Source of the DNA: Chthoniobacteraceae bacterium
GTDB lineage: Bacteria > Verrucomicrobiota > Verrucomicrobiia > Chthoniobacterales > Chthoniobacteraceae
DNA: 28,249 bases
Assembly (NCBI GenBank): GCA_031409335.1
Contig: JANNWY010000070.1
Span: forward strand, 1-28,249
Direction of reading: 5' to 3'
Positions 1 through 18,823 of the stretch are shown piece by piece. The position numbers and the translations under genes are program-made. The number at the start of each line of letters is the position of its first letter. Position 1 is the stretch's first letter. The notes below the pieces were generated by a model. It had not been told where the DNA came from and searched no databases. It was given only the letters and a program-made list of their open reading frames with translations.

Positions 1-2636
1 CGCAAATTGCACGTTGGCCGGCGGGGTTGCGTGCATCCGGCCCTGATTCTCCGCGACGATGCCATCGACGGGATAACCCACCAGCGTCTTGAGCGCGGAT
101 GAAAGCAAAAACTCGTTGTCCGTGGCATCGCTCGCCAGATACCCACTGAAGCGCCCGCGCGCGGCGTCCTCTGTAAAATAGATCGCCGCCACATCAAGGT
201 GCTGCGATTGCGCTGATGAACTGCCGGGCGTCGCCTCCGCGATTCGCCGCGAGGCGTATCCGTCGAAGACATACGCACCACGCGGAATGAGTGGCTTCGG
301 CTCGTAGGTCCCGCGATCCCGCTGGAAGAGCCATTGCAACCCCGCCGCATAACTTAGCGCGCCATCGTCAAAGACCACATGCCCCGCCGTCGCCACCACG
401 CGCGCCCCTCCGGTTCGCATCAGATCGACCCTCACCGCAAAACCCGTGGCCACCCCCACACTGCTGCGGAGCTGCCCCACGAAGGCATAAGGCAGATTCG
501 TACTCGTCGAGACTGTTTCAAAAGGCAGCACACCCGGTGTCGTTCCACTCGGCGCATCCGCGAGGAAGTAGGTGGCCGTCGGTGCGCTCGGCGGGCCGTC
601 TTGCACCGGCACATTGAGCGGGGGCGGTGTCGTCCGCCCGGCCACCGGCTTGCACTCCACGAGATAGTTGCCCGGCACCAATCCCGTGACCAGCGCTCCA
701 CTGTCCCGCCAAGTCGGCGAGGTTGCATCGTTTGGAGCCGTCGGATCGCCCTCCCCGAGCAGCCGCCACTGCGCCCGCACCGGCTGCGCGACTCCGGCCG
801 CGGCCAGCGCATCCGGTTTCAGAGTGACCGTCAATCCTCCGCTACCCACCGTTTCGGCTTCGTAGTATTCCTTCTCCAGTTCCACCTGTGCCCCGCCGCT
901 GATCACACTCACCGTTTCCGGCGGCGGCTGGGTGTAACCCGGCACCGGCCGGAACTCGACCGTCCGGTCCCCCGTCGTCAACCCACCCGCCAGCACTCCC
1001 GAAGCCCGCCACTGCTGCTCCCCCACAAACCGCCACCCGAACCCCGTTACACCACCAGGAATCAGCGTCACGAACACACTTCCCTGCCGCTCCCCAAACC
1101 CCACCAACCCAGGAAATTGCTGCGTAAAACCCGAAAGAAGATCCAGCACAAGAGGCATTGCCGCACTCACCCCCACGCCCCCCGCACTCGTCCCCTTCAC
1201 GCGGTAGAAATATGTCGCCTGCTGCGGCAGTCCGCTCAACGTCGCGCTCACCGCGACAGGAGCGCTGCCATTCACCGTCAGCGGTGTCGCCACCACGTTG
1301 TTTGGGAAATTGACCCCATCGGTCCCATACTCAAACACCACGGTAGTCAACGCCGCCAGCGCATTGACTGTCCCGTGAAGCGTCGCGCTGCTCGAAGTCA
1401 CAGCCGTCGGTGCCAACGCCAACGGCACGGGGTCCGTCAGCGTGGTAAAACTCTGCACACCGCTGACCGTCGTTCCTCCCGCATTGGTGGCCACGATCCG
1501 GTAGAAAAAAGTCGTTCCAGGAGGCAGACCGGTCGCAGTAAACGTCACCGGCATCGGGCTATTTCCCAGCACTAGCGGTACGCTGGACGATGTTTTGAAG
1601 ATAAAGCCATCATCCGTGGCATACTCGAAAGTCACAGTCGCACCGTAGTTGCGCGCGTTCACCGTGCCGTTCAAAGTCGCGCTGCCATTGGCATTGGTAT
1701 TCGGGCTCGCCAAGTCCCGCACGATCGCCGTGGCGGGCGTGGCTACTGCCAGTGGTCCAGCGAGCGTGGAAAAACTTGTTACCGGGCTGACTGTCGTTCC
1801 CGCACTGCTCACCGCGCGAAAGCGGCAGAAATAGGTCGTCGCTTCGGCCAGCGGGTCCAGCGTGGTGCCGACGAGCTGGGTCTGGTAGCCACTCAGACTC
1901 GCCACGACCGGCACCGTGTTCAGAAAACTCACGCCGTCGGTTCCGTATTCGAGGGATACTACAGTCGCCGCACCCCGCGCATTGACGTTGGCGTCCACCA
2001 CAACGCTTGCACCGCCTTGGAGCGAGACGTTTCTCACCGCGACTGTGGGGGCGCCGGCAAAGATCAAGCGGTAGATGGTGCCATCGCCACCAGTGCCGAA
2101 TCCAGAGGTCGTTCCATAGAGATTTCCATCCGCAGCGACGATGAGATTCCCCAATGGATTGTCACCATCTGATCCCCCAAGGAACTCTCGTATGGTCGTC
2201 AGGTCCCCCGCAGTTGTCATTTTGAACACCGTCCCAAGGCCGTTCGCTCCGCCTAGTTTAGTCGTCCCGTAGAAATTGCCGTCAACGCCCTCCACCAAAC
2301 CCGCAACGGGCTGTCCCTTGTTCGTTACCCCATCGCCGGTGAATTCCACCAGCGTCATCAGCGCCCCCGCAGGTGTCATCTCGAAGACCGTGCCAAGGCC
2401 ATGCGCACCCCCATTTCGAGTCGTCCCGTAAAATTTGCCGCCAATGCCGCGCACCAAGCCCGCATATGGGTAAGCGCCCTTGGACGCCCCCCCGTCGCCG
2501 GTGAACGTCACCAAAGTCGTCAACGTTGTTCCCTCGGCTGTTCCGTTGGTAGTCAATTTGAACACGGTGCCTAGGCCGATCGTGTCGTTTTGTTGTTCAG
2601 TCAGCCCGTCCGTTGTCCCGTAGAAAGCGCCGTCGC
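1..2636 (-). pseudogene. C-terminal continuation of paralog A (3 more GloVer repeats, 3 FN3-like domains, PEGA-like domains, trypsin-like protease domain); runs off the window edge
   Basis: Manual translation gives an open frame from YGTTDGLTEQQNDTIGLGTVFKLTT through GTIYRLIFAGAP, GWRFVGEQQWRASG, VVATAGHVVFDDG (His codon 379-381), QHLDVAAIYF and KTLVGYPVDG to MHATPPANVQFA at base 1. It is colinear with paralogs B and C. Absent from the ORF track, probably because it has no stop in the window. Confidence 0.88.
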
Positions 2637-4400
2637 TGTCCCGTAGAAAGCGCCGTCGCTGTCCCGCACCAAGGCCGCATGAGGATACGCGCCCTTTCGC
2701 TCTCCCACGATGCCCGTGAACTCCACCAACGTTGTCAACATCGTTCCCTCGGCTGTTCCGTTGGTAGTTATCTTGAACACCGTGCCAATGCTGTTCGCAC
2801 CACCCCGTTCTGTCGTTCCGTAGAAATTCCCGCCGCTATCCTGCACCAAGCGCGCATAAGGGCGAGAGCCCTTGTTCGTCCCGCCGTTGAAGGTGAACTC
2901 CACCAAGGTCGTCAGCACGCCCGCAGGCGTCATCTTAAACACCGTGCCATGGTTATTCACGCCGCCGTGTGTGGTCGTCCCGTAGAAGTTGCCGTCGCTG
3001 CCCTTCACCAAGCACTGACGCGGGAAACTGCCGTTGTTCGCCCCCCCAATGCCAGTGAACTCCACCAAGGTCGTCAGCAGCCCTGCAGGCGTCATCTTGA
3101 ATATCGTGCCAACGCCGTTCGTACCGCCGTTAACAGTCGTCCCGTAGAAACTGCCGTCGGTATCCTGCACCCCCTGAAAAGGATACACACCCTTATTCGA
3201 CACTCCGTTGACGGTGAAATCGACCAAGGTCGTTAGCACCCCAGCGGGCGTCATCTTGAACACCGTGCCACTACCGATCGGACCGTTCGCGCCGCCCGCG
3301 TAAGTCGTCCCGTAGAAGTTGCCGTCGTTGGCCTGAATCAAGCCCGCACGCGGGTAAGCGCCCTTGTCCGAAGCCTCGTTTCCGGTGAAACTGACCAGCG
3401 TCTGCAGTGTAGTGCCGGAAGGGGTTCCATCTGTGGTCATCTTAAATATTGTGCCAAGGCCGTTCGGGCCGCCGTATTCAGTCGTCCCATAGAAGTTGCG
3501 GTCGCTACCTTGCACCAAGCCTGCACTAGGTGATCGGCCCTGGTTCGACGCCCCGATGCTGGCGAACTCCACCAAGGTCGTCAGCAGCCCTGCAGGCGTC
3601 ATCTTGAACACCGTGCCAGTGTCATTCACGCCGCCAATGTAAGTCGTCCCGTAGAAGTTGCCGTCGTCGCCCTGCACCAAGGCGGCCTCGGGATCACGCC
3701 CCTTGTTGGACGTCGCATCGCCCCTGAACTCCACCAAGGTCGTCAGCGTCCCCACACTCGTCATCTTGAACACCGTGCCATAGCCGTATTCAAGATTGCC
3801 GGGATTTTGCCCAAACGTGCCACCCTGGGAGGTTGTGCCGTAGAAATGCCCGTCAGCCCCCTGCACAAGCCCGCCGGGGCGCCGTCCCTTGTTGCTGGTG
3901 CCGTTGTTGCTGAACTCCACCAAGGTCGTCAGCGCGCCATGCGGCGTCACCTTGAACACCGTGCCAAAGTTATTCGCACCGCCTTTGCTAGCCGTTCCAT
4001 AGAAGTTGCCGTCGCCGCCCATGCCATGCACCAAGCCTGCGATAGGGCGAGAGCCGTTGTTCGCTCCCCCGATGCCGGTGAACTCGACCAAGGTTGTCAG
4101 CACCCCGGCAGGCGTGACCTTGAACACCGTGCCATAGCCGGCCTCATCGCCTGCTCCGCCTTGTGCACCGCCTTGTTCAGTCGTCCCGTAGAAGCTGCCG
4201 TCGCTGCCATGCAATAAGCCCGCATAAGGGTAAGCACCCTTGTTCGCCCCCCCGATGCCGGTGAACCTAACCAAGGTCGTCAACACTCCCGCAGGCGTCA
4301 TCTTGAACACCGTGCCAAAGCCGCTCGGGCCACCGCTTCGAGTCGTCCCGTAGAAGTTGCCGTTGCTGCCCTGCACCAAGCCTGCAAGAGGGACCGCGCC
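2060..4400 (-). repeat. Intragenic GloVer repeat array of paralog A
   Basis: 14 copies once the frameshift is corrected; recurrent gtcatcttgaacaccgtgcc...gtcgtcccgtagaagttgccgtcg. Confidence 0.88.
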
Positions 4401-4556
4401 CGTGTTAGCTATGTCCGCCGCTCGCGCCTCGGTGAAGTCGAACGTCTTCTCATACACCTGCCCGGTAGCAGCGGGAGTCAACGCTAACAAGTAAAGGGCG
4501 AGGATTGAAACGATCCGACTGAAAACCACCCGAAGGCGCAAAAGATTCTGACTCAT
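2601..4556 (-). CDS. N-terminal part of paralog A: signal peptide plus about 11 GloVer (Gloeo_Verruco, TIGR03803-like) repeats, truncated by a frameshift
   Basis: 651-aa ORF with signal-like start MSQNLLRLRVVFSRIVSILALYLLALTPAATG/QVYE and tandem ~54-aa repeats P-x-AGLVQGSDGNFYGTTxxGG...GTVFKMTPAGVLTTLVEF. Ends in an out-of-frame tail (ATALSTGQRTG*) after the duplication at 2614-2659. Confidence 0.9.
   Translation of the reverse strand: MSQNLLRLRVVFSRIVSILALYLLALTPAATGQVYEKTFDFTEARAADIANTGAVPLAGLVQGSNGNFYGTTRSGGPSGFGTVFKMTPAGVLTTLVRFTGIGGANKGAYPYAGLLHGSDGSFYGTTEQGGAQGGAGDEAGYGTVFKVTPAGVLTTLVEFTGIGGANNGSRPIAGLVHGMGGDGNFYGTASKGGANNFGTVFKVTPHGALTTLVEFSNNGTSNKGRRPGGLVQGADGHFYGTTSQGGTFGQNPGNLEYGYGTVFKMTSVGTLTTLVEFRGDATSNKGRDPEAALVQGDDGNFYGTTYIGGVNDTGTVFKMTPAGLLTTLVEFASIGASNQGRSPSAGLVQGSDRNFYGTTEYGGPNGLGTIFKMTTDGTPSGTTLQTLVSFTGNEASDKGAYPRAGLIQANDGNFYGTTYAGGANGPIGSGTVFKMTPAGVLTTLVDFTVNGVSNKGVYPFQGVQDTDGSFYGTTVNGGTNGVGTIFKMTPAGLLTTLVEFTGIGGANNGSFPRQCLVKGSDGNFYGTTTHGGVNNHGTVFKMTPAGVLTTLVEFTFNGGTNKGSRPYARLVQDSGGNFYGTTERGGANSIGTVFKITTNGTAEGTMLTTLVEFTGIVGERKGAYPHAALVRDSDGAFYGTATALSTGQRTG
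2614..2666. repeat. 23-bp perfect tandem duplication with 7-bp microhomology, causing the frameshift in paralog A
   Basis: TGTCCCGTAGAAAGCGCCGTCGC at 2614-2636 and 2637-2659, followed by TGTCCCG at 2660-2666. Removing one unit restores DSDGAFYGTTDGLTEQ. Confidence 0.93.
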
Positions 4557-4659: not shown

Positions 4660-4872
4660 GGGGATGTCATCAAAATTTCCATCACTGGCGCGTGAGCGTA
4701 AATCGGCTGCTGGTGACTTTCGTGGGAGACGGCTCGGCGTCGGTGACAAACGAAGCCTGAGCGCGGCGAAGGCCGTCGAGCCGATCCCGCCCAAAAACAA
4801 AGCCGTGGTGAATTTCACGAGGCAGATGCGATGCCGGGGGAGGGATGGATGCACGCGGGGATGCGAAGCGGG
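4660..4872 (-). repeat. Decayed copy 1 of a GloVer-gene 5' end (signal-peptide N-region plus ASDGNFD fragment)
   Basis: 4799-4871 is similar to 6201-6272 (ASHPRVHPSLPRHRICLVKFTTAL vs MKTASHHPLHPSLPRHRISIVKMT). 4668-4690 (catcaaaatttccatcactggcg) matches 5342-5364 and encodes ASDGNFD. Confidence 0.7.
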
Positions 4873-4876
4873 GAAA

Positions 4877-4936
4877 GTGACACGGGTTTTCCAGCCCGTG
4901 AATCTCGCCATGCACCGACTGGAAAGCCGATGGCAC
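4877..4936. repeat. REP/REPIN-like element of two inverted palindromic arms
   Basis: Left arm gtgacacgggttttccagcccgtg (4877-4900) and right arm caccgactggaaagccgatggcac (4913-4936). Each arm is a hairpin and they are imperfect inverted copies. A sibling element is at 5467-5565. Confidence 0.7.
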
Positions 4937-5004
4937 AGGACCATCGCAGTAAGACCGGGCCGTGGGGAGAACATGACCGGAAAAAGCCGCACCCGCTTTT
5001 CGCC

Positions 5005-5253
5005 CTACCCCTGGGGCGCGGCACCCTGTTGAGCCGACTCGGGCTGCGGCTTGTAGTTCAAGCGCGTGATTTGCGAGATGCTGATGTGATCCACCTGCCC
5101 ATCGCGCTGCTCGACGAAGACCATGAGGCCGGTGTGCAACATCCACGCGTAATCGTGGTGATGGACGACGATTTCCTGCCCGTCAGCCGTGAAGATCGAG
5201 AAAGGACGGAAAGGCTGCGCACGCAGCATGGAGCGGAGTTCATCGGCGATCAT
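5005..5253 (-). CDS. Small hypothetical protein (82 aa, PFRPF motif)
   Basis: MIADELRSMLRAQPFRPFSIFTADGQEIVVHHHD... is protein-like and resembles small hypothetical proteins I recall from Planctomycetota/Verrucomicrobiota. Function unknown. Confidence 0.75.
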   Translation of the reverse strand: MIADELRSMLRAQPFRPFSIFTADGQEIVVHHHDYAWMLHTGLMVFVEQRDGQVDHISISQITRLNYKPQPESAQQGAAPQG

Positions 5254-5465
5254 GGCGGGAGAGTAGGATGAGGAATATCGGCAGGCAAGCAGACGTTTGA
5301 AAAGTGAATGAGGCCAACCGCGCCGCCGACTTCGGTGGAACCATCAAAGTTTCCATCACTGGCGAGGAGGAGCTTGCCGGAAGGGAAGTTGCCCGCCGCC
5401 GTGTCCTGGAGCGAGACGAGCCTTTCCAAAACCTGCCCCCGCGCCCCCGCCGCGAGGAGGAGCAG
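5250..5465 (-). repeat. Decayed copy 2 of a GloVer-gene 5' end
   Basis: Encodes LLLLAAGARG/QVLERLVSLQDTAAGNFPSGKLLLASDGNFDGSTEVGG...PTLPP*. 5356-5465 matches 6061-6170 at 104/110 nt by manual count. The stop overlaps the ATG at 5251-5253 (ATGA). Confidence 0.85.
5254..5265 (-). promoter_or_regulatory. Possible -10 element for a leaderless transcript of the 82-aa gene
   Basis: The minus strand reads TACTCT-CCCGCC-ATG, a TANNNT hexamer 6 nt before the start codon, with no Shine-Dalgarno sequence. Confidence 0.35.
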
Positions 5466-5466
5466 A

Positions 5467-5565
5467 GTAACACAGGCTTTCCCCATCGACAGGCTCAGGG
5501 CCTTGAGCTTGGCGAAACGGCAGCCTGTGAGCCCGCCCACGCACCGGCTGGAAAGTCTGTGCCAC
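5467..5565. repeat. REP/REPIN-like element with a second hairpin nested in its left arm
   Basis: gtaacacaggctttc [39-bp insert 5482-5520, hairpin tcgacaggctca..tgagcttggcga] cagcctgtg ... caccggctggaaagtctgtgccac. Confidence 0.7.
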
Positions 5566-5581
5566 CTTGAGCGCGCCGCCT

Positions 5582-5782
5582 TCACAGGCCCAACTCGCGC
5601 GCGACATCCTCGAAAGGCCGGGTGGGTGCGCCGCCTTCCTCGCGTTTGGCTTCCCGCAGGGCGAGCAAGTCCTCGGCATCGTCGATCCATGCGCGCATGG
5701 CGATGTATTCCTCGTAGGGCAGGACGACGAATTCTTCGCGCCCGTTTTTTCGCAGGATTTCAGGGTGCAGTTCGATGGGCAT
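5582..5782 (-). CDS. Type II antitoxin (Phd/YefM- or RelB-like, 66 aa), partner of the RelE toxin
   Basis: MPIELHPEILRKNGREEFVVLPYEEYIAMRAWIDDAEDLLALREAKREE...FEDVARELGL; acidic and directly downstream of relE. The start is the ATG at 5780-5782; the 160-aa track ORF is over-extended. Confidence 0.85.
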   Translation of the reverse strand: MPIELHPEILRKNGREEFVVLPYEEYIAMRAWIDDAEDLLALREAKREEGGAPTRPFEDVARELGL

Positions 5783-5802
5783 GGTGTGCGGTATTTGGAT
5801 GG

Positions 5803-6051
5803 TCAGCGATAAGCCTCGCGGCGATGGAGGATGCGATAAACGACGACGGCGTCGTTTTCGATCTCGAAAAGGACGCGGTAATCGCCCACGCGCAACCGGT
5901 AACTCGGGACGAATTGAGTGAGGCGCTTTACGTCGCCCTGCAAGTCTTCGCGCAAAGCACGGAGTTTTTCCGCCACGCGCTCCTGCTCCGCGCGAGGCAG
6001 CGCCCGGATGTCTTTTTCGGCTTTGGGCTTGAGGTCGAGGGAGTAAGTCAT
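5803..6051 (-). CDS. relE: RelE/ParE family type II toxin (82 aa)
   Basis: MTYSLDLKPKAEKDIRAL...VKRL...YRLRVGDYRVLFEIE...VVYRILHRREAYR carries the canonical RelE motifs. Confidence 0.93.
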   Translation of the reverse strand: MTYSLDLKPKAEKDIRALPRAEQERVAEKLRALREDLQGDVKRLTQFVPSYRLRVGDYRVLFEIENDAVVVYRILHRREAYR

Positions 6052-6279
6052 GCGACGCGATCACTGGCGAGGAGGAGCTTGCCGGAAGGGAAGCTGCCCG
6101 CCACCGCGTCCTGGAGCGAGCCGGGCCTTTCCAAAACCTGCCCCCGCGCCCCCACCGCGAGGAGGAGCAGGCAACCCATGATGGCGCTACTGCCGCGCAT
6201 AAAGCCGTGTCATTTTCACGATGCTGATGCGATGCCGGGGGAGGGATGGATGCAGGGGGTGATGCGAAGCGGTTTTCAT
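6048..6279 (-). repeat. Decayed copy 3 of a GloVer-gene 5' end (most complete, with its own ATG); includes a 43-aa mini-ORF at 6048-6179 overlapping the relE start
   Basis: ATG at 6277-6279 gives MKTASHHPLHPSLPRHRISIVKMT; after a frameshift it reads MGCLLLLAVGARG/QVLERPGSLQDAVAGSFPSGKLLLASDRVA*. The TGA overlaps the relE ATG. Confidence 0.82.
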
Positions 6280-6301
6280 GGGGGAGGAACGCGAGAGCTT
6301 T

Positions 6302-6704
6302 TTAGAACAGCGCGTGGAAACCCGCTTCGGTGAAATGCCGGTCATTCGTGAACGCCCGCCGCAGTCCGAGCCGGCGCATGACCGCGAAGGACAGTTCATC
6401 GACGAGACCGGGCGCGCCGGGGAATCCGCTCTGGTAGTGTTCCCAGGCTGTCTCGAAGTCCGCCTCGGTCGGATGAATCAGGCCGCGATACGAGGCCAGC
6501 AGCGTCCGCAGATCGACGACGGATTCGCGAAAAGGCCGACCGCGCGGTGGCGTTCGCACATTCAGCCAGTACGAAGGTCGTGGTGAAAAGCGTGGCGCGC
6601 TCCCGCTTCACCGCTGTGAAGGCAGTCGAGGCCGCGCTGTGCCATTGGTCATCTTCATTCCAGACGGCTAAAAGCCCCACGGTGTCGAGGAACACTGGGC
6701 TCAC
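6302..6704 (-). pseudogene. vapC: PIN-domain VapC toxin with a +1 frameshift near 6540
   Basis: N-half MSPVFLDTVGLLAVWNEDDQWH...TTTFVLAECANATAR and C-half RPFRESVVDLR...GLVDELSFAVMRRLGLRRAFTNDRHFTEAGF are in different frames. The 403-nt span equals 134 codons plus 1 nt. PIN acidic motifs are intact. Confidence 0.88.
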
Positions 6705-6913
6705 GGCTGATGCTCATTGTGGCGCTCGGCGGTGTCGTGGCACCCTGAGCGAAACCGTCGTGAGAGCACTTCGTAAACGGCGTCGAGGGTCGCCGGGTCT
6801 GGCTCCGGCAAGGGGGCCGAGAGCGAAAGCTCCACCCGCGAATGCTCCGGGAGATCGACCTTCTCCAGCGGGCGAAAAACGCCGTGCTCGTAGATGGCGG
6901 TGACGGTGCTCAT
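6701..6913 (-). CDS. DUF104/AF2212-like antitoxin (70 aa), upstream partner of VapC
   Basis: MSTVTAIYEHGVFRPLEKVDLPEHSRVEL fits the AIYE-GVF-PL..V.LPE signature; GTGA overlap with the vapC start. Confidence 0.88.
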   Translation of the reverse strand: MSTVTAIYEHGVFRPLEKVDLPEHSRVELSLSAPLPEPDPATLDAVYEVLSRRFRSGCHDTAERHNEHQP

Positions 6914-7035
6914 GGGCGGGAGGAAAGCAGAGAATGGCCGTTAGCGCGACGTGAAAGTTTCGGACCGCAGTCCGAGCCGCCGATCTCGGATGAGCCATAA
7001 AAGTTCCCGCTACTGGCGGGGAGGAACAGTGTGAC
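6910..7035 (-). repeat. Decayed copy 4 of a GloVer-gene 5' region
   Basis: Encodes VTLFLPASSGNFYGSSEIGG (compare LLLASDGNFDGSTEVGG). The frame runs to a TGA overlapping the antitoxin ATG at 6911-6913. Confidence 0.65.
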
Positions 7036-7280
7036 ACGGCCTTTCCTCTTCTGCTGGCTCAGGCGGGGCGGGCGATGAGGTGGATGTCGCGCTCGGCCGC
7101 GCCATGACAACGATCCGCGTGAAGCGCCCATTCATTTTAGCGGCCTGCGGCCAGTTGCTCTTCATTGCGCGGCGGAGCGACGCCATCCACCTTTCCAAAT
7201 CACGCCGGCGCCGACTTCGGGGACTCCCTCTGAGAAAATGTTTGTCGGACGCCGCTGGAGAAGCGCATCTTCCCAGCGCT

Positions 7281-10200
7281 ATGCACCCTCGAATTGCTGG
7301 TTGTCTCCTGGTTCTCACTCCGTTGATTTTTCTCCCGCAACTGGCGCGAGGTCAGGATGCGTCGGTGATCGAGGTGGAGCGGGTGGTCTCGATCGAGAGG
7401 CCGGGGGCGAAGGCGGCTGCGGCGAAGAATGATGATCCGCTGGCGGTACGGGATATTTTGCGGACGGGGTTGAAGAGTCGGGCGACGGTGCGGCTGAATG
7501 AGCGGGAGCAGTTGCGCGTGGGACAGACGACGGATTTGCAATTGCTCGGGCTGCAAGTGCCGGGGGGACAGGGGGAGCCTCGGGAGATTTCGATCCGGCG
7601 TGGGGTGGTTTACATTTTTAGCCGGGAGCCGGAACAGCGGGTGAATATTAAGACGCTGGCGGGGAACGGGGCGTTGCGCGGGACGCAGTTGATCGTGGAG
7701 GTGCGGGGGAATCGGGCGCTGTTTGCGCTGCTGGAGGGGGAGATGGATTTGTCTAACTCGAAGGGGAAACTGACTTTGAAGCCGGGGGAATTTGGGGAGA
7801 TGCGTCCGGGGCAGGCTCCGCGCAAAACGGCGGTGTTGGAGGCGAAGAATATTTTGCAATGGGCGTTGTATTATCCGGCGGTGCTGGATCCGACACAGTT
7901 AGGGCTAACTCCTGGTGAGGAGTCTAAGATTGCGGGTTCGCTGGAGGCTTATCGCGCGGGGGATTTGCTGGGGGCTTTGGAGAAGTACCCGCTGGGGCGG
8001 AGCGGGGGACCGTCGGCAGCGCGGGTGTATCGCGCGGGGATTTTGCTGGCGGTGGGGCGGGTTGATGATGCGCGGGCGGAGTTGCGCGGGGTGTCGAGTG
8101 CGGCGCCGGGGCGGCGGGCGATTGAGCAGTTGATCGCGGCGGTGAACTTTGAAGATTTTCCCGAAGGTGAACCTTCGGATGCGGCGGGATGGGTGGCGCA
8201 GTCTTATTACGAGCAGTCTAAGAGCAAGCTGGATGCGGCGCTGGCGGCGGCGAAGAAGGCGGCGGAGTTATCGCCGGACAATGGTTATGCGTGGACGCGG
8301 GTGGCGGAGATGGAGTTTTCGTTTGGGCACACGCCGCAGGCGCTGGATGCGCTGAAGCGGGCGCTGGAGCTGACTCCGCGCAATGCGCAGGCTCATGCGG
8401 CGAATGGGTTCGCGTTGAGCGCGCAGAATCGGATCAAGGAAGCGCGCGCGGCGTTTGATGAGGCGATCGCGCTGGATGGGGCGCTGGGGAATGCGTGGCT
8501 GGGGCGTGGCTTGGTGACGATCCGGCATGGCGACTTGGCGGCGGGGCTGCTCGATCTGCAAACAGCGGCGACGCTGGAGCCGCAGCGGGCGATTTTTCAT
8601 AGCTATCTCGGCAAGGGATATAGCCAGTCGGACGATAGCTCCAGTGCGACGAAGGATCTGGATTGGGCGAAGACGCTTGATCCGAATGATCCGACGCCGT
8701 GGCTGTATTCGGCGATCCAGAAGAAGCAGGAAAATCGCTACAACGAATCCATCGCCGATCTGGAGCAGTCGCTCGCGCTGAATGAAAACCGGCGCGTGTA
8801 TCGCTCGAAGCTGCTGCTCGATCAGGATCGCAGCGTGCGGAGCACAAACCTGGCGTCGATTTACCAAAACAATGGGATGACGGATGTGAGTGTGCGCGAG
8901 GCGGCGAAGGCGGTGACGAGTGATTACTCGAACGCCTCGTCTCACCTTTTCCTGTCGAACAGCTACGAGGTGTTGCGCGATCCACGCCGCGTGCAATTGC
9001 GGTATGAGACGGCTTGGTTCAATGAACTATTGCTCTCGAACCTGCTCTCGCCCGTGGGTGGCGGGTCGCTTTCGCAGTATGTTTCGCAGCAGGAATACTC
9101 GAAACTGTTCGAGAGTGAGGGCCTGGGGATCAGCAGCGTGACTGAGTATTTTAGCAATGGAGATTTCCGGGAGACGGGGTCTCAGTATGGAACGGTTGGG
9201 AATCTGAGCTATGCGCTGGATGCGGAGTATCTGTATCAGAATGGCATTCGCCCGAACAACGAGATCAGCCGCTTTGAGGCCTATGCGACGTTCAAACTTC
9301 AGATCACTCCACAGGATACGATCTTCCTAAAGACGAAGTATGAGGACTTGCAGAATGGGGACATTTTTCAGCGGTTCGATCAGCGGGAAGTGAATCGCAC
9401 CAATCGCTTGGCGAATACTTTCGACTTCCGCGAATTGCAGGAGCCAGCGCTGATCCTTGCGGGGCTGCATCACGAATGGTCGCCTGGAAATCACACGCTG
9501 GTGCTGGCGCAGCGGCTGGCGAATGATCAGGTGCTGACGGCGGAAGGTGGCGGGTTCGATATATTGCAGCGGGACATTACGGGGGAGATTCCACCGGGCT
9601 TCGATGCCTCGGGCATTGATCCCAACCGACCGCTCGCGAACCGCAGCCTGCTGGATTTGCTGAATGGTCTGCGCGGACGGGGCATCCTGGAGCAATACTT
9701 CCCGGCTGGGATCGCGCTGGATGTGGATTACCGCGCGAACTTTGAAATCTATGGCGGGGAAGTGCAGCAGATTTTCACGATCGGGCCACACACGCTGGTT
9801 GGCGGAGGGCGCTTTCAGTCGGGGACGTTCGAGACGCAATCGCTGCTGCAAAATCTGCCGCCTAATCTTGCCGGTAGTGAGAGCCTCTTTCTCGATCCGC
9901 CGGCCCGGCAGAATTTCTCGGTCGATTTCGAGCGGATCAATCTCTACTTCTACGAGACATGGAAAGTGGCTCCCTGGCTGTCGCTAACCGGCGGCGTGAC
10001 CTACGACAAACTCACTTACCCGGAGAATTTCCGCAGCATTCCCATTTCAAATCAGGATCAGACGCTGGAGCAGACTTCCCCCAAGGCCGGCTTCATCTTC
10101 CAGCCGCACCGATCTGTGACTCTACGCGGCGCATATACCCGCGGTATTTCAGGCGTGAGCTTTGATGAAAGTGTTCGTTTGGAGCCGACGCAGGTCGCCG

Positions 10201-10934
10201 GATTCAACCAGGCTTTTCGGACCCTCATTCCCGAAGACCTGACTGGTGCTGTTGGCGGTTCCTCGTTTGAGACTTACCACCTGAGTCTTGAGCAAAAGCT
10301 GCCGACGAGAACCTATTGGGGAGTCCAATACGAAGTCCTCCAACAGGATCTCGATCGAACCGTGGGGGCGTTCGATTTTCTCTCCGATACAAATGATCCC
10401 GGGCGGATTCGCGGCATCCTGCCGTCTTCCCTGCGGCAGCAACTCGACTATCGCGAGGACAGTCTCACCGCGACAGTAAACCAGCTCATCGGGAACTCCT
10501 TTGCCGTTGGAATACGCTACCGGGTGAGCGATGTGAAGCTGCGGCAAACCACTCGTGAAGTGGTCCCAAGTCCGGTCCGCGGCGCCGCTGGCGATTCGGA
10601 TACCACGCGCTCGTCGATTCTCCACGAACTCGGAATCACCGCAGTTTACAATCTTCCCAGCGGCTTTTTTGCAAGGGGCGAAGCCTTGTGGTTCAATCAG
10701 GAGAACGATGGATTTGCCGTCAATCCACTCCAGCCTTCGCGTGATCCCCGGCCGGGCGATAGCTTCTGGCAGTTGAATGCGACGGCGGGCTGGCGGTTCC
10801 GTCGCAATACCTGCGAGTTGAGCGCGGGCGTGCTGAATATCACCGGTTCCGATTACCAACTCGAACCGCTGACCAGTTACAATGAGCTGCCGCGCGACCG
10901 GACCTTCTTCGTACGGTGCAAGCTGACGTTCTAA
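7281..10934 (+). CDS. Outer-membrane protein with signal peptide, FecR domain, TPR repeats and TonB-dependent-receptor-like beta-barrel (about 1217 aa; NsrA-like architecture)
   Basis: Probable start MHPRIAGCLLVLTPLIFLPQLARG/QD at 7281. FecR motifs (DILRTGLKSRATV, ALRGT, LLEGEM), TPR motifs (ALELTPRNAQAH, LDPNDPTPW), alternating beta-strand C-terminal region, terminal Phe (CKLTF). Confidence 0.88.
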   Translation: MHPRIAGCLLVLTPLIFLPQLARGQDASVIEVERVVSIERPGAKAAAAKNDDPLAVRDILRTGLKSRATVRLNEREQLRVGQTTDLQLLGLQVPGGQGEPREISIRRGVVYIFSREPEQRVNIKTLAGNGALRGTQLIVEVRGNRALFALLEGEMDLSNSKGKLTLKPGEFGEMRPGQAPRKTAVLEAKNILQWALYYPAVLDPTQLGLTPGEESKIAGSLEAYRAGDLLGALEKYPLGRSGGPSAARVYRAGILLAVGRVDDARAELRGVSSAAPGRRAIEQLIAAVNFEDFPEGEPSDAAGWVAQSYYEQSKSKLDAALAAAKKAAELSPDNGYAWTRVAEMEFSFGHTPQALDALKRALELTPRNAQAHAANGFALSAQNRIKEARAAFDEAIALDGALGNAWLGRGLVTIRHGDLAAGLLDLQTAATLEPQRAIFHSYLGKGYSQSDDSSSATKDLDWAKTLDPNDPTPWLYSAIQKKQENRYNESIADLEQSLALNENRRVYRSKLLLDQDRSVRSTNLASIYQNNGMTDVSVREAAKAVTSDYSNASSHLFLSNSYEVLRDPRRVQLRYETAWFNELLLSNLLSPVGGGSLSQYVSQQEYSKLFESEGLGISSVTEYFSNGDFRETGSQYGTVGNLSYALDAEYLYQNGIRPNNEISRFEAYATFKLQITPQDTIFLKTKYEDLQNGDIFQRFDQREVNRTNRLANTFDFRELQEPALILAGLHHEWSPGNHTLVLAQRLANDQVLTAEGGGFDILQRDITGEIPPGFDASGIDPNRPLANRSLLDLLNGLRGRGILEQYFPAGIALDVDYRANFEIYGGEVQQIFTIGPHTLVGGGRFQSGTFETQSLLQNLPPNLAGSESLFLDPPARQNFSVDFERINLYFYETWKVAPWLSLTGGVTYDKLTYPENFRSIPISNQDQTLEQTSPKAGFIFQPHRSVTLRGAYTRGISGVSFDESVRLEPTQVAGFNQAFRTLIPEDLTGAVGGSSFETYHLSLEQKLPTRTYWGVQYEVLQQDLDRTVGAFDFLSDTNDPGRIRGILPSSLRQQLDYREDSLTATVNQLIGNSFAVGIRYRVSDVKLRQTTREVVPSPVRGAAGDSDTTRSSILHELGITAVYNLPSGFFARGEALWFNQENDGFAVNPLQPSRDPRPGDSFWQLNATAGWRFRRNTCELSAGVLNITGSDYQLEPLTSYNELPRDRTFFVRCKLTF

Positions 10935-13039
10935 AGTGGCTGCTGAAGTTTCGCGGTGAGCGGCTGACTGTCGGCGAGCGGCGGCAATTGCTGCGTCGTG
11001 GTTTGCTCGGGGCGGTGCTGGTCGCGCTGGTGACGCTCGCGATTTGGCAAAGCCAGGAGGGCCATGCGTGGTTCGAGCGGCTGAGCTATGACTTGCCTCA
11101 TCTCTTCAAACAGAAGCGGCCACCAGAAGTGCGCATGGTTTATATGTCGGAGACGGCGGCCATCGCTCTCGGACAAAGCTTTGGGATTTGGAATCGCAGT
11201 ATTCACGCGAAGTTGATTCACGAACTGAAGAAGGCAGGCGCGAAGGCGGTTTTCTTCGACTTGGTGCTGATCGAGCCGGGCGAAACGATCGGGCTCGATC
11301 CGAAGATCGACGAGAGTCTGCACGCGGCGATCCGCGAGCATGGACAGGTTTACTTCGGCGCGATGTTTGATCCGCGCACTCGCACGATCGGTAGCATGGG
11401 TGTTTCGCTGCAAAGCGTGGTGCCGCCTCACGATGCCCTGCTGGATGCCGTGGGCGATCACTGGGGTCTTCTGGCGATGAATCCGATCGACTCCGATTAC
11501 GCAGTGCGGCGCTACTATGGTGGGACGATGTATGTGCCTTCCACAACTTGGGTTTTGGCCAATGAGATGGGTGCGGGACTCGGCGACGACCCGGACGAGC
11601 GCGAGCGCGAGCGCTGGCTCAACTATTACGGGCCGCCGGAAAGCGTGGGGCCGGTGGGGCTCGATCGCGCTAAACCCAATGAACGCAGTCGCGAGTTCAC
11701 GTTCGATTCGCTGGATTACGACACGGTGCTGCTGCGGCCTGAGGAAGTGGCGAAAGAATTTTTTCGCGACAAGGTGGTCTTTGTCGGACTGCGGAATCAG
11801 CTCGGGATCGTGAGTGCGGGCAAAGACGAATTCAGGCATCCCACTAGTCGTTGGACGAATCAATACATCAGTGGAGTGGAAGTCCACGCCACCGCTTTTA
11901 TGAACCTGCTTAAACACGAATGGCTCACGCGCTTTGACCGGCGATGGGAGGTGGCGCTGATACTGATATTCGGTGCGATGCTGTCAGTGGTCAGCGCGCG
12001 TTCGGTGCCGTGGGTTGCTTTCTCAATCGCGCTGCTCGCGGTGCTGCTCATGGGATGGCTGGGCTTTTGGAGTCAGTTGCACCGTAGCGTTTGGTTTAAC
12101 TGGTCGCTGCCGGTCATCGTGCAGGTGCCGATGGCATTGATCTGGGGAATCGCGACGCGCTATGCGGTGGTCGAGCGGCGTCGGGCGCGGTTTCGGTTTT
12201 TGCTGGGGACTTATCTATCCGAGGATGTGGCGGCGGCGATGGTGGACCATGGGTTTCAGGCGATGCCGAGTAAGAAGTGTGTCGTGACGACGATGTTCAC
12301 GGACATCGAAGGCTTCACCACGCTTTCGCAGAAGCTGCCGCCAGAGGATGTGGCAAAAGTGCTTTCCGCCTATTTCCAGCGAACGAATCCGCACATTCAT
12401 AAGAACTCGGGAGCCATCCTGCGTTACGTCGGCGATGCCATCGTGGCGGTCTGGAATGCTCCGCGCGAATGTGCCGACCACGCGGAGCGGGCGTGTGCGG
12501 CGGCGCATCAGATCGCGCTACTGAATGCCGAACCGTTGCGCGTGGATGGCGAGGCATTCATCGTGGATGGCCAGCCGCTGAAGCTGCGGACGCGGGTCGG
12601 TGTTCACACTGGGAATGTCATTGCGTGCAACGTCGGCTCCGAGGATCGCTTTGATTTTACCGTGCTCGGCGACGACGTGAATCTTTCGGCGCGGCTGGAG
12701 GGTTTGAACAAATACTTCCGCACGACGGCGCTGACGACGCGGAGTTCGGCGCGGCTTTTGCGGGATGCGAGCGCGGTGCGGTGTCTGGGCACGATCGTGG
12801 TGAAAGGGCGGACGAAAGGGGTGCGCGTGTTTGAATTGCTGGATGCGCCGCTCGACGCGGAGTGGCAGCGTCGATTCATGCGGGCAGTCGTGCTGCTTGC
12901 GAAAGGCCAAGACCTGAAAGCAAAGGCCGAATTTCTGGCGCTCAAGCAATCAAGGCCCGCAGACGGTCCGACGGACTTCTACCTAAGTCGCATCGAGAGT
13001 GGAAAAACATCATGGCCCTTGGAAATGGATGATAAATAA
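10916..13039 (+). CDS. CHASE2-domain membrane class III adenylate/guanylate cyclase
   Basis: N-terminal TM, CHASE2 motifs (W-RSIHAKLI, GAKAVFFDLVL, DSDYAVRR, FRDKVVFVG, SGVEVHATAFMNLL), 3 TM helices, cyclase motifs MFTDIEGFT, YVGDAIVAVW, RVGVHTG, FTVLGDDVNLSARLEG. Exact start uncertain. Confidence 0.93.
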   Translation: MQADVLKWLLKFRGERLTVGERRQLLRRGLLGAVLVALVTLAIWQSQEGHAWFERLSYDLPHLFKQKRPPEVRMVYMSETAAIALGQSFGIWNRSIHAKLIHELKKAGAKAVFFDLVLIEPGETIGLDPKIDESLHAAIREHGQVYFGAMFDPRTRTIGSMGVSLQSVVPPHDALLDAVGDHWGLLAMNPIDSDYAVRRYYGGTMYVPSTTWVLANEMGAGLGDDPDERERERWLNYYGPPESVGPVGLDRAKPNERSREFTFDSLDYDTVLLRPEEVAKEFFRDKVVFVGLRNQLGIVSAGKDEFRHPTSRWTNQYISGVEVHATAFMNLLKHEWLTRFDRRWEVALILIFGAMLSVVSARSVPWVAFSIALLAVLLMGWLGFWSQLHRSVWFNWSLPVIVQVPMALIWGIATRYAVVERRRARFRFLLGTYLSEDVAAAMVDHGFQAMPSKKCVVTTMFTDIEGFTTLSQKLPPEDVAKVLSAYFQRTNPHIHKNSGAILRYVGDAIVAVWNAPRECADHAERACAAAHQIALLNAEPLRVDGEAFIVDGQPLKLRTRVGVHTGNVIACNVGSEDRFDFTVLGDDVNLSARLEGLNKYFRTTALTTRSSARLLRDASAVRCLGTIVVKGRTKGVRVFELLDAPLDAEWQRRFMRAVVLLAKGQDLKAKAEFLALKQSRPADGPTDFYLSRIESGKTSWPLEMDDK

Positions 13040-16000: not shown

Positions 16001-18823
16001 CCCCACGACCGCGACCGGTTGGGCCAGCGTCGAAAAGCTCTGCGTCGCACTCACCACCGTCCCCTCCGTATTGGTCGCCACGATCCGATAGCGATAGGCC
16101 GTCCCCTGGACCAATCCCGTCACCGTCGCGCTCACCGGCACCTCGCTGGCACCCGTTAGCGGTGATGGCGTCGCCGCCACTTGATTTGGAAAGCCCTGTC
16201 CGTCCAAGCCCCACTCGAAGATCACGGTCGTGGCGTAGCCTCGTGCGTTCACGAGGCCCTGGAAGCGGGCGCTGGTGGCGAGGACGCTGCTCGGCGCACT
16301 GACCGTGGCGGTCGGGGCCGACAGCGTGGTCAAAAAGTTCGCCACCTGACTGACCGACGTCCCCGCGCTACTTACCGCGCGGAAGCGGTAGTAGTAGCGC
16401 GTGTTGGGGGTCAAAGCCTCCAACGTGGTGCCCACTAGGCGGCTTTGGTAACCGGTCAGATTAGTTGCGACGGGCACGATGTTGGGGAAGTTCACGCCGT
16501 CGGTCCCGTATTCGAGCGCCACGGCGGTCGCCGCACCGCGGGCGTTGACCGTGGCATCGACGACCGCACTGAAGCTCCCCAGGGCCGCGGCATTTGCAAA
16601 GACCAGCGGTGCGCCGGGAAAGAGGAGCCGGTAGATACTGCCATCCGGCCCGGCCGTGGTCCCGTAGAGATTGCCATCGGCTCCGGGAATCAATCCCGCC
16701 GTTGGATTTCCCTCCTCGGGAATGGTGAACTCGACCAGCGTCGTCAGCACCCCGGCGGAGGTCATCTTGAAGACGGTGCCGACGCCATTCGTGCCACCCT
16801 CCGAGGTCGTGCCGTAGAAACTGCCATCGCTGCCCTGGACCAAGCCGGATCGAGGCTGAGCCCCTTTGTTGCTCGCCCCGTTGTCCGTGAACTCCACCAA
16901 GGTCGTCAGCACTCCGGCCGGTGTCATCTTGAAGACGGTGCCACGGTCGGCCGCGCCACCGAATCCGGTCATGCCGTAGAAACTGCCATCGCTGCCCTGG
17001 ACCAAACCAGCGTAAGGATAACTCCCTTTGTTGCTTGCCCCGTCGCCCGTGAACACCACCAAGGTCGTCAGCACTCCGGCCGGTGTCATCTTGAAGACCG
17101 TGCCGAAGCCGGCCGTGCCACCCTCCGAGGTCGTGCCGTAGAAACTTCCATCGCTGCCCTGGACCAAGCCAGCGTAAGAATAACTCCCTTTGTTGCTCGC
17201 CCCATTGCCGGTGAACTCCACCAAGGTCGTCAGCACTCCGTCCGGCGTCATCTTGAAGACCGTGCCGAAGCTGGCCGCGCCACCCTCCGAGGTCGTGCCG
17301 TAGAAATCCCCATCGCTGCCCTGGACCAAGCCAGCTCGAGGATGAGCCCCTTTGTTGCTCGCCCCGTTGCCGCTGAACACCACCAAGGTCGTCAGCACTC
17401 CGTCCGGCGTCATTTTGAAGACCGTGCCGGAGTTGGAGCCACCCTCCAAGGTCGTGCCGTAGAAAGTTCCATCGCTGCCCTGCACCAGACCAGCAAGAGG
17501 AGAACTGCCATTGTTGCTCGCCCCGTTGCCGGTGAACTCCACCAAGGTCGTCAGCACTCCGGCCGGCGTCATCTTGAAGACCGTGCCGGCATTATTCGCG
17601 CCACCCCTAAAGGTCGTGCCGTAGAAACTTCCATCGCTACCCAGCACCAAGTCTGCAGCAGGGGAACTCCCCTTACTGGATGTCCCGCTGCCGGTAAACT
17701 CCACCAAGGTCGTGAGCACGCCGGCCGGTGTCATCTTGAAGACGGTGCCGACGCCATTCACGCCCCCGAAAATGGTCGTGCCGTAGAAACGTCCGTCGCT
17801 GCCTTGGACCAAGCCAGCTTGAGGTTGAGAGCCTCGGTTGCTCGCCCCGTCGCCGGTGAACACCACCAAGGTCGTGAGCACGCCGGCCGGTGTCATCTTG
17901 AAGACCGTGCCGACGCCACCCGCGCTACCGGATTGGGTCGTGCCGTAGAAACTTCCATCGCTGCCTTGGACCAAGCCAGCTTGAGGATTCCTCCCTTTGT
18001 TGGTCGCCCCGTTGCCCGTGAATTCCACCAAGGTTGTGAGCACTCCGGCAGGCGTCATCTTGAAGATCGTGCCGAAGCCGATCGCGCCACCCTGCGAGGT
18101 CGTGCCGTAGAAACTCCCATCGCTGCCCTGGACCAAGCCCGCTTGAGGATTCCTTCCTTTGTCGGTCGCCCCGTTGCCGGTGAACTCCACCAAGGTCGTC
18201 AGCACTCCGGCAGGCGTCATTTTGAAGACCGTGCCGAAGCCGGTTGCACCACCGGTTAGGGTTGTGCCGTAGAAATTTCCATCGCTGCCCTGAATCAAGT
18301 CAGCTCGAGGTTGAGCCCCTTTGTTGCTGGCCCCGTTGCCGGTGAACTCCACCAAAGTCGTGAGCACTCCGGCCAACGTCATCTTGAAGACGGTGCCGGA
18401 ATCGGACGCGCCGCCCAGCGCGGTCGTGCCGTAGAAATTTCCATCGCTGCCCGGGACCAAGCCAGCGAAAGGATAAGCTCCTTTGTTGCTTGCCCCGTCG
18501 CCCGTGAACTCCACCAAAGTCGTCAGCACTCCGGCCGGCGTCATCTTGAAGACTGTGCCGACGCCGTCCGCGCCACCTCCAGAGGTCGTGCCGTAGAAAC
18601 TTCCATCGCTCCCTTGGACCAAATCAGCCACAGGCACACTCCCTTTGTTCGGGGTATTGCCCTGATCGGTGGCACGCGCCGCAGCAAAGCTGTAGATATT
18701 CTCGTACACTTGGGCACAGGCTGGCGGGACGAATCCCGCCGCCCCGAGCGCCACGGCGCAAAGCGCGGCGGCGAGGCGGACGGGGAACAACACGGGGAAC
18801 CGGCGGGGGAAGAGGGTGTTCAT
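13091..18823 (-). CDS. Paralog B: 1910-aa secreted protein (13 GloVer repeats, 3 FN3-like, PEGA-like, trypsin-like domain with His->Gln, Ig-like, conserved C-terminal domain)
   Basis: Signal peptide ending ACA/QVYE; 13 YG(T/M)T repeat cores; TAGQ, HLD and GNSGGP motifs; C-terminus ADFDGDG...ERVKVTD...RYGRLKVTMP. Confidence 0.93.
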   Translation of the reverse strand: MNTLFPRRFPVLFPVRLAAALCAVALGAAGFVPPACAQVYENIYSFAAARATDQGNTPNKGSVPVADLVQGSDGSFYGTTSGGGADGVGTVFKMTPAGVLTTLVEFTGDGASNKGAYPFAGLVPGSDGNFYGTTALGGASDSGTVFKMTLAGVLTTLVEFTGNGASNKGAQPRADLIQGSDGNFYGTTLTGGATGFGTVFKMTPAGVLTTLVEFTGNGATDKGRNPQAGLVQGSDGSFYGTTSQGGAIGFGTIFKMTPAGVLTTLVEFTGNGATNKGRNPQAGLVQGSDGSFYGTTQSGSAGGVGTVFKMTPAGVLTTLVVFTGDGASNRGSQPQAGLVQGSDGRFYGTTIFGGVNGVGTVFKMTPAGVLTTLVEFTGSGTSSKGSSPAADLVLGSDGSFYGTTFRGGANNAGTVFKMTPAGVLTTLVEFTGNGASNNGSSPLAGLVQGSDGTFYGTTLEGGSNSGTVFKMTPDGVLTTLVVFSGNGASNKGAHPRAGLVQGSDGDFYGTTSEGGAASFGTVFKMTPDGVLTTLVEFTGNGASNKGSYSYAGLVQGSDGSFYGTTSEGGTAGFGTVFKMTPAGVLTTLVVFTGDGASNKGSYPYAGLVQGSDGSFYGMTGFGGAADRGTVFKMTPAGVLTTLVEFTDNGASNKGAQPRSGLVQGSDGSFYGTTSEGGTNGVGTVFKMTSAGVLTTLVEFTIPEEGNPTAGLIPGADGNLYGTTAGPDGSIYRLLFPGAPLVFANAAALGSFSAVVDATVNARGAATAVALEYGTDGVNFPNIVPVATNLTGYQSRLVGTTLEALTPNTRYYYRFRAVSSAGTSVSQVANFLTTLSAPTATVSAPSSVLATSARFQGLVNARGYATTVIFEWGLDGQGFPNQVAATPSPLTGASEVPVSATVTGLVQGTAYRYRIVATNTEGTVVSATQSFSTLAQPVAVVGAATAVTDQSARLHGTVEARGTLTAVVFEYGTVPGTYSNTVVAMPATVSGNSPVPVTVNVSGLTPGVTYYYRVKATSAGGVGVSAELPLELDLLSQFAQTFPETPPEALGFVVIDLSPAGIAAGWRFAGEQAWRPSGALAGSLTTGDRTVEFRPVPGYLQPPSENVSVISGGAPVFWSRTYTPTGAVGSGTLTVVLKPDDVADVNMAQAVRAQWRFLGEGDPTDPDDNQSATWRNSGETITGLLAGNYLVECKPVVGRATPPPLNVPLLDGQTVAKTATYIPASTPTGTPPGVLPFETVTASPNLPYGYVGQLRSNVGVGTGFAVRVDPARTGGARVVATAGQVIFDDGALAFATGLQWLFQRDAGAFEPKPLIPRGSYVFDGYAARRTAEAMPGNFSPQSQHLDAGAIYFLEDAARGGFGGYLASDAPDNPFLLSPALKTLVGYPLDGIDAENQGRMHATPVANIHFARVPGTTTVLDPPAPASPYPDGTPFRLYATSEIHSSGGNSGGPLCVQFDDGTYYPAGIFLGGAGQTVVRSIDSELIALFRRAEDSGYDEDPNNTGGGIVQINTPIGGGGFSLASLVVDISPASAVNGGARWRLGTNGTAYTGGTQLTGLTPANYNLVLTAVPGFITPATTSRTLTAGVLSTISVPYNGFTTHPANRTIFAFQDTTFSVAVSGTPNSYQWRFRPPVGATVLIPGATSSSYTLSNADNSDEGEYAVAVTWPNGVILSSFATLTVNPTAQVITFPQPPNRILDDGSFILDAPASSGLAVAFQILSGPATIAGATLTPTGLGTVTVRASQPGSGNYSAAANKIQSFDVLGDNLNAWRTRRFTAAELGNPLISGSLADFDGDGVNTLLEFSLNLDPKLGDRITMTAVTGTRGLPLIRSENVSGQQRLTAEFVRRRAAGSPGIAYSVEFNSVLTNPNGWTTGSTEVVTPIDTTWERVKVTDPQPASTTRYGRLKVTMP
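16640..18650 (-). repeat. Intragenic ~162-bp tandem repeat array (GloVer repeats) of paralog B
   Basis: Recurrent gtgaactccaccaaggtcgtcagcactccggccggtgtcatcttgaagaccgtgcc...gtcgtgccgtagaaacttccatcgctgccctggaccaagcc with ~162-bp period. Confidence 0.9.

Follow-up and report, generated by a model that had tools for sequence, protein, structure and literature searches.

The closest described counterparts of the locus reported here are the orphan cdiA-CT/cdiI and rhs-CT/rhsI modules and the effector–immunity arrays of the V. cholerae type VI secretion system (T6SS), in which, according to the parts of the sources available to us, toxin modules are stacked beside a host gene with variable-length fragments of that gene between them and no integrase, and for which the route suggested is homology-facilitated illegitimate recombination (PMC3150448, PMC5361080). 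Chromosomal toxin–antitoxin (TA) islets offer a further likeness, as TA clusters without mobility genes and with toxin pseudogenisation; the available portions of the reports trace them to transposons or res sites and have them spreading through recombination within the core genes at their flanks (PMC13617665, PMC7167474), and in the available main text of the former neither ‘direct repeat’ nor ‘repeats’ occurs. Here we describe an array in a 28,249-nucleotide stretch of Chthoniobacteraceae DNA (hereafter the window), the entire contig C70 (JANNWY010000070.1, 28 kb) of assembly GCA_031409335.1 (G000; 7.94 Mb, 62% GC, 326 contigs), where three small cargo modules, two of them TA-type pairs, alternate with four broken copies (F1–F4) of the start of one GloVer (TIGR03803) gene. 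With the Rhs and contact-dependent inhibition (CDI) arrays it shares the fragments of an adjacent host gene between modules. In those arrays, as far as the accessible accounts go, the cargo is a displaced tip of the host protein that can be re-fused through the fragment, whereas the cargo here stands alone as a type II TA-like operon that brings its own leader, the RelE, PIN, AF2212 and Phd-like cargos being separate genes with their own start codons, and the host gene is arbitrary, with both 5′ and 3′ ends used. The architecture itself is not unique, the Rhs and CDI arrays being close; what is added is a measured link to TA loci. In the open-access literature (supplements excluded) our search met no account of TA pairs lying between duplicated ends of a host gene, which does not establish absence from print.

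Integrons and clusters of attC sites lacking integron-integrases (CALINs) hold co-oriented small cassettes, many of them TA modules, with one spacer per cassette. The present array shares these features and, unlike integrons and CALINs, has no attC, no attI or intI at the locus, spacers of host coding sequence, and at least two cargos that bring a leader of their own. Some integrative elements, among them e14 at icd and the dusA islands, duplicate a gene end while the gene stays intact, and can accrete in tandem; here, by contrast, the cargo measures 0.3–1 kb, there is no integrase or remnant, and neither the crossover nor the stub ends have a fixed place. In transformable bacteria, insertion-duplication (Campbell-type additive integration) leaves an insert flanked by direct copies of its target, with the gene regenerated on one side, and can be reversed by recombination; it is known mainly as a laboratory tool or from single events, whereas the pattern described here is serial, natural and enriched at TA loci. 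Transformation-made duplications are covered in the available part of one further source (PMC3784515).

Results

On the minus strand the array reads F1, AF2212/PIN, F2, RelE/Phd-like, a repetitive extragenic palindromic (REP)-like repeat, F3, an unnamed 82-aa gene, a second such repeat, F4 and gene A, all co-oriented, as the first-pass annotation had it; three cargos to four fragment copies make an n+1 layout. Its features are as follows.

7031..7046, minus strand: end of a dispersed palindromic repeat of REP type that lies immediately upstream of F1; motif present 32 times in the genome, 3 of them in the window.
6966..7026, minus strand: F1, which of the GloVer parent-gene fragments has diverged most and covers just the first repeat (TIGR03803 E 0.028; aligns to the intact homolog in the relative G165).
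6914..6965, minus strand: leader of the AF2212/PIN cargo, a predicted promoter; a homologous leader precedes a related pair at an unrelated G165 host gene.
6701..6913, minus strand: AF2212-like (DUF104) predicted antitoxin, 70 aa (PF01954 E 1.1e-10).
6302..6704, minus strand: PIN/VapC-type predicted toxin gene in two frames (PIN_3 E 0.0025; its G165 homolog matches PIN).
6060..6279, minus strand: F2, the longest fragment, with leader or alternative start, signal peptide and start of the first repeat (105/111 to F3, 89% to F4a).
5803..6051, minus strand: RelE/ParE-family predicted toxin, 82 aa (PF05016 E 9e-12); the toxin’s ATG and the stop of the F2 frame overlap.
5582..5782, minus strand: Phd/RelB-like predicted antitoxin, 66 aa (PF02604 E 8.8e-5, NF048017 E 0.0036, both below the curated cut-off).
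5467..5580, minus strand: nested REP-like repeat, parts of which match 14 contigs.
5318..5465, minus strand: F3, signal-peptide end and first GloVer repeat (TIGR03803 E 2e-4).
5254..5288, minus strand: predicted leaderless promoter of the 82-aa gene (TTGCCT, 17 nt, TACTCT, 6 nt, ATG).
5005..5253, minus strand: 82-aa gene of an unnamed family (no Pfam or NCBIfam match; Atlas clusters ‘hypothetical’).
4877..4945, minus strand: REP-like repeat directly upstream of F4, parts of which match 15 contigs; motif end at 4877.
4660..4871, minus strand: F4, a composite of leader F4a (4799–4871), a middle part and repeat piece F4b (4668–4690).
2601..4556, minus strand: gene A, the neighbouring GloVer gene (TIGR03803, 11 repeats).

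The homology first noticed among the fragments holds, with 5355–5465 and 6060–6170 identical at 105 of 111 positions and 4799–4871 matching 6201–6272 at 89% over 73 nt, as does the lack of an integrase or transposase, neither family being found among the 12 window proteins scanned. Unitigs of sequencing runs X1 and X2 reproduce the fragment–cargo junctions with 0–2 differences, so the layout is not an invention of assembly; the identical core common to F2 and F3 is spanned by no unitig of either run, and since X1 (possibly the source data) and X2 come from one study, their agreement checks assembly, not spread.

F1 and F3 are about 76% identical over 51 nt (counted by eye), and the last ~50 nt of the F1 stretch before the AF2212 ATG are the cargo’s own leader. 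F4 is made up of a 73-nt leader, about 110 nt without clear homology and a 23-nt piece that matches F3 at 22 of 23 positions; it shares an NFD-for-NFY change with F3 and lies where the intact parent gene would be expected. Gene A, with a different N-terminus, is not that parent, and the N-terminus of the fragments occurs in none of the GloVer genes of G000. F1–F4 match nowhere else in the 7.9-Mb assembly and are not a dispersed repeat of that genome, which would have told against a tie to the cargo; an exact-pattern scan of genome_contigs gave 0 matches. Among 150 family genomes a single one, G165, matches strongly, through an intact gene for a secreted GloVer/Fn3 protein that runs to 1234 aa or more before the contig end cuts it; this gene has the signal peptide and tandem GloVer repeats that survive in the window only as fragments. 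It is 83% identical to F2 over 81 nt and 79% identical to F3 over 116 nt, is preceded upstream by a REP belonging to the same nested family, and has no TA module adjoining. The ATG, signal peptide and first repeat that the first-pass annotation had assembled from the fragments stand except for the start, which is ambiguous: the ATG at 6279 requires a frameshift, and the ATG at 6200, which is in frame, lines up with the point where the intact homolog begins.

The array locus is present in none of 40 relatives’ genomes, and a metagenome scan with the fragment returned at least three generic GloVer genes among the matches listed. Three proteins from other assemblies (P0002–P0004), 82–84% identical to F3, terminate right after the same first repeat and two of the three read as a REP plus stub, so that the gene start exists as a stub in related lineages too; the open frames of all three are biased by the length filter of the search. 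In two contigs of run X6 an F3-like copy runs on into a leader of AF2212 type at the point where the window has that of the 82-aa gene, and in one contig of run X3 position 4683 is joined to 7012, the 2328 skipped being equal to the F4b/F1 register (81% identity, 35-letter short side). These short contigs from diverged relatives are weak evidence for differing cargo at the fragment boundaries, and to that extent relatives depart from the identical content that would have spoken against gain or loss of units. The lack of cover of the 82-aa gene in X5 and X6, of which less than half was read, is given no weight here, and the small-share runs X5–X8 were left out of any reading of habitat.

The same footprint occurs elsewhere in G000. 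Self-comparison of the genome, with genes called by our own hexamer script, revealed 122 local low-copy direct repeats and 40 clusters enclosing small genes, many of them TA pairs. Taking all PIN (31), DUF433 (11) and ParE (12) matches as anchors and masking dispersed repeats (9% of the genome), we aligned the two 1-kb flanks of each and counted scores of at least 40; 400 control small genes were drawn, of which 36 were dropped for short flanks. A non-dispersed direct repeat lay on both flanks at 10/54 anchors, compared with 3/364 control small genes and 0/400 cross-paired flanks. Collapsed to loci, the figures are 9/50 TA loci and 3/364 controls (Fisher p 4.6e-7), for anchor families picked after the pattern had been seen and with the window locus as one of the nine. 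Junctions between two long genes scored in 3 of 300 cases. The three matches among the control small genes comprise two TA-like genes absent from the anchor list and one attC cassette.

Apart from a non-coding, REP-like repeat on contig C46, these footprints translate as pieces of genes, with a host assigned at all but C279. The hosts are varied, including cas1 (C301, C252), a TIR gene (C176) and secreted proteins (C242, C68, C280). In the clearest case, on C301, cas5 is followed by a cas1 5′ stub, a DUF2281/PIN pair and intact cas1, while the stack on C280 has an intact gene and three stubs, with three cargos to four copies. An intact gene stands on one side at C301, C252, C280 and contig C1 of G165; in the window all copies are decayed.

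Relatives repeat the pattern. Around DUF433, AF2212 and the 82-aa family we collected 88 loci (the 30 best per search, minus two G000 loci), 87 with usable flanks, and 11/87 scored against 0/300 cross-pairs; three of the 11 are short or REP-like and eight are gene pieces, whose hosts include thiC-like, acylphosphatase and proA-like 3′ ends. When ten loci (nine of the 11 and one other) were widened, four proved to be serial stacks, so that with C280 the n+1 rule is obeyed at G165:C1 (five copies), G015:C473 (five), G132:C71 (four), G008:C1 (three) and G000:C280. At G165:C1, the start of a gene for a 1424-aa secreted protein occurs five times, with four cargos in between (three PIN pairs and one unnamed pair), and the intact gene comes last; the copies start at or just before the ATG and stop at different points. 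The cargo that comes first there is closely homologous to the window AF2212/PIN pair; it shares the leader, lacks terminal repeats and sits at an unrelated host gene, and the distance from toxin stop to next ATG is 20 nt there and 22 nt in the window. At G015:C473, five copies of a 3′ end that we take from its peptide to be thiC-like surround DUF433, Phd, MNT/HEPN and PIN modules. There the last codons of the stub give a −35-like hexamer 17 nt from a −10-like hexamer before the next cargo (L153 3729–3880, 4509–4662; by eye), possibly forming a hybrid promoter.

Turning to the cargos of the window, the PIN gene is frameshifted and probably inactive; a related X6 contig is one base shorter within it. 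Its neighbour belongs to a family that, in the available part of one study, is a predicted antitoxin where AF2212/DUF104 lies beside PIN (PMC2701414). The RelE and Phd-like genes adjoin as toxin and antitoxin families of type II, the Phd match being below the cut-off. The 82-aa family is common in Planctomycetota and Verrucomicrobiota, with matches in 63/150 family genomes and up to 11 copies; it usually lies behind a leaderless-type promoter and is repeat-flanked at 4/29 sampled loci. Its promoter spacing recurs upstream of many homologs and scores below the threshold of the scan tool; a consensus promoter scan found 0 sites in the array, missing the AF2212/PIN leader as well. A search for AF2212 in viral contigs gave 0 matches. 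The frames of F2, F3 and F1 stop on an ATGA that overlaps the cargo start (6048–6051, 5250–5253, 6910–6913), with 8 nt between F2 and the relE ATG, and one G165 stub frame likewise ends on a cargo ATGA (L151 6741–6744). Such overlaps may couple translation of stub and cargo; as a rule, coupling was rejected, since C301, C176, C242 and C252 lack the overlap. Cargo gain by reverse transcription of mRNA was rejected too, because leaders with promoter-like boxes travel with the genes.

Several observations stand beside these. Two different cas operons each have a TA-like pair and a duplicated cas1 start (C301 27152–28376, L023; C252 994–1906, L030). The first cargo of the C280 stack is a 216-aa gene (16407–17057, L026), presumably resembling DUF4263/Shedu-type defence proteins. 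On C325 (2627–5618, L038) four copies of a non-coding repeat of 90–260 nt surround small genes, including a Gp49/HI1420 pair, beside ardC. On C9 (L021 9371–12905), three tyrosine-recombinase genes, which we take to be RIT-like, lie between 91-nt inverted repeats upstream of a gene A paralog; the locus also has a PIN pair, and a homolog of that pair is among the cargos of the G165 stack. Gene A and an open reading frame at 1–2565 look like a single GloVer gene broken at a 23-nt tandem duplication (2589–2682), the break being covered by an X1 contig without differences. Between GloVer genes, 7080–13039 holds a FecR-TPR-TonB-barrel gene and then a CHASE2 adenylate/guanylate cyclase gene. An Rfam scan gave one chance-level match, outside the array.

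Discussion

The n+1 layout, the arbitrary host genes, the use of both gene ends, the variable inner boundary and the enrichment at TA loci are observed directly, and they bear out the serial gain of cargo with duplication of a host-gene 5′ end that was first proposed for this locus; it is the mover of the cargo that we infer. With no recombinase or att site at the array, we favour, as a probable though not assured account, a stack built by repeated insertion-duplication via host homologous recombination rather than by an integrase. The incoming DNA would be a module beside 50–300 bp of a host gene end, integrating by one homologous crossover, either as a circle or with an illegitimate second joint, to leave a stub on one side and regenerate the gene on the other. 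Every stub would then be a fresh landing site, and alleles with different cargo could pile up by unequal recombination; inserts could revert by recombination between copies, a filter that addictive cargo would survive. In the window the last copy, which should be the intact parent, would itself have decayed. The available part of one source proposes the same recombination route for T6SS and Rhs arrays (PMC5361080). G000 encodes ComEC, a weak point in favour, as 10/14 control genomes have it too. Six pairs of copies from relatives, in frames chosen and sums made by hand and with the window pair and two whole-gene duplicates left out, differ at silent sites in 41/75 cases where 38% would be expected of an intact copy beside a dead one (p 0.004), an excess to be expected if both copies were once working alleles.

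A number of results weigh against it. At 41/50 TA loci of G000 no such repeat lies within 1 kb, and the comparison in relatives had a cross-pair control only, without a non-TA control, and drew on kin that are not independent. In G000 itself, 14 pairs counted in the same way give a silent fraction of 75/178 (42%), above the neutral 26% and equal to the 41% expected of an intact copy beside a decaying one (p 0.76). All 6 sites at which F2 and F3 differ are coding and 0 are silent, which does not show foreign alleles at this locus; duplication of an already dead fragment fits it best. An intact parent was not found in G000 by blastn, tblastn or a six-frame GloVer profile, and without one in the assembly the order of events cannot be read. 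Among the contigs examined there was no F2/F3 excision or circle junction, and the mechanism is accordingly one that we infer. F1, F3 and F4 each start 1–5 nt past a REP end, pointing to a REP-linked step here. The addiction argument is limited in its turn: in the parts of Belot et al. available to us (PMC13617665), most tested chromosomal TAs are addictive and TA systems do not conserve their chromosomal neighbourhood, a result that cuts both ways.

Foremost among the alternatives is an origin within the genome, in which replication template switching or microhomology-mediated repair copies a TA module from another place into a gene and returns upstream, duplicating 50–300 bp of target, and tandem duplication with exchange of cargo at the start codon extends the array. 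The 6 coding and 0 silent differences between F2 and F3, the derived change shared by F3 and F4 and the intact-plus-dead divergence of the G000 stubs all fit it. So does the placing of junctions, which cluster at ATGs: the G165 copies begin within a few nucleotides of one, three thiC-like stubs begin at one internal ATG, two G165 cargos with a common leader diverge after the ATG, and at the X6 junction parent and cargo leader overlap by ~10 nt (one case, across species). Against it, no cargo has a near duplicate elsewhere in the genome (the best RelE paralog is 41%, and the other cargos have none); the silent excess in relatives’ pairs also speaks against it. We regard this origin as unlikely.

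Rather less likely is a role for a REP-associated HUH enzyme (RAYT/TnpA-REP) that would cut REP ends and insert or amplify cargo with adjacent host DNA. Its appeal is local: of 32 REP-end motifs in the genome, three fall within these 2.2 kb, one lying just upstream of each of F1, F3 and F4, at the fragment’s start, and the genome has 11 Y1 matches. None of the 32 motifs, however, has a PF01797 match within 1.5 kb; F2 has no REP, none is seen by eye at the G165 stack, and the AF2212/PIN unit lacks a 3′ REP, so that repeats at both cargo ends with a cognate transposase are not what the array presents. The REP of the same family upstream of the intact G165 parent may instead have been duplicated with the gene start and then trimmed, and because 12/14 other footprints are free of dispersed repeats over the 50 nt next to the junctions, we treat such trimming as local. 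Folding the three REP pieces and F2 gave none more stable than shuffles.

The array had first been called integron-like; in the sense of a cassette system dedicated to this gene, that is not supported. There is no attC, the spacers differ in length and in their ends, and many unrelated host genes bear the same footprint, at 5′ as well as at 3′ ends. That the fragments are att-like sites of a degenerate integron (CALIN), or of another site-specific recombinase array served in trans, is very improbable and already largely refuted. The genome does have an integron integrase (C166 399–1334, with no attC-like site within 9 kb) and attC-like arrays on C122 and C268, and the F3/82-aa junction falls at a G-TT. 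Yet an attC profile built from the genome’s own attC-like elements found nothing in 4.5–7.2 kb while recovering the C122 positive control; a strict R-box pattern has one match in the array, starting inside relE and ending inside the antitoxin gene; no R″-L″-L′-R′ site follows the cassettes; neither intI nor attI lies beside the array, and no recombinase in the whole contig; and the spacers are variable-length coding fragments of many different genes. An assembly artefact from collapsed strains, conceivable in a metagenome-assembled genome of 326 contigs whose F2/F3 core no unitig spans, can be dismissed with near certainty, the copies differing by 5–24%, the junctions recurring in X1 and X2 at even depth (X1 pieces 8.9–14.4) and the layout recurring in other assemblies.

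Returning to insertion-duplication by host recombination, we offer one extension more tentatively: TA modules of this lineage may travel as ‘homology-primed’ cassettes, each a promoter, a TA pair and up to 300 bp of host gene end, that pop out as circles between flanking copies and re-enter any homologous gene end by host recombination, with addiction deciding which stay. As it stands, the footprint marks ~18% of the TA loci of a single genome and, across its family, 13% of the small-module loci sampled, at a near-zero control rate, and it makes sense of the short ‘pseudogene’ stubs next to cas1 and other genes, as scars left by the gain of cargo. It makes one route of TA integration testable, being countable in genome collections, predicting pop-out junctions and open to rebuilding in a laboratory strain. 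If the homology-primed cassette reading is true, any gene end could seed an integrase-free cassette array, and the question of how TA modules integrate into chromosomes would have a general, countable answer.

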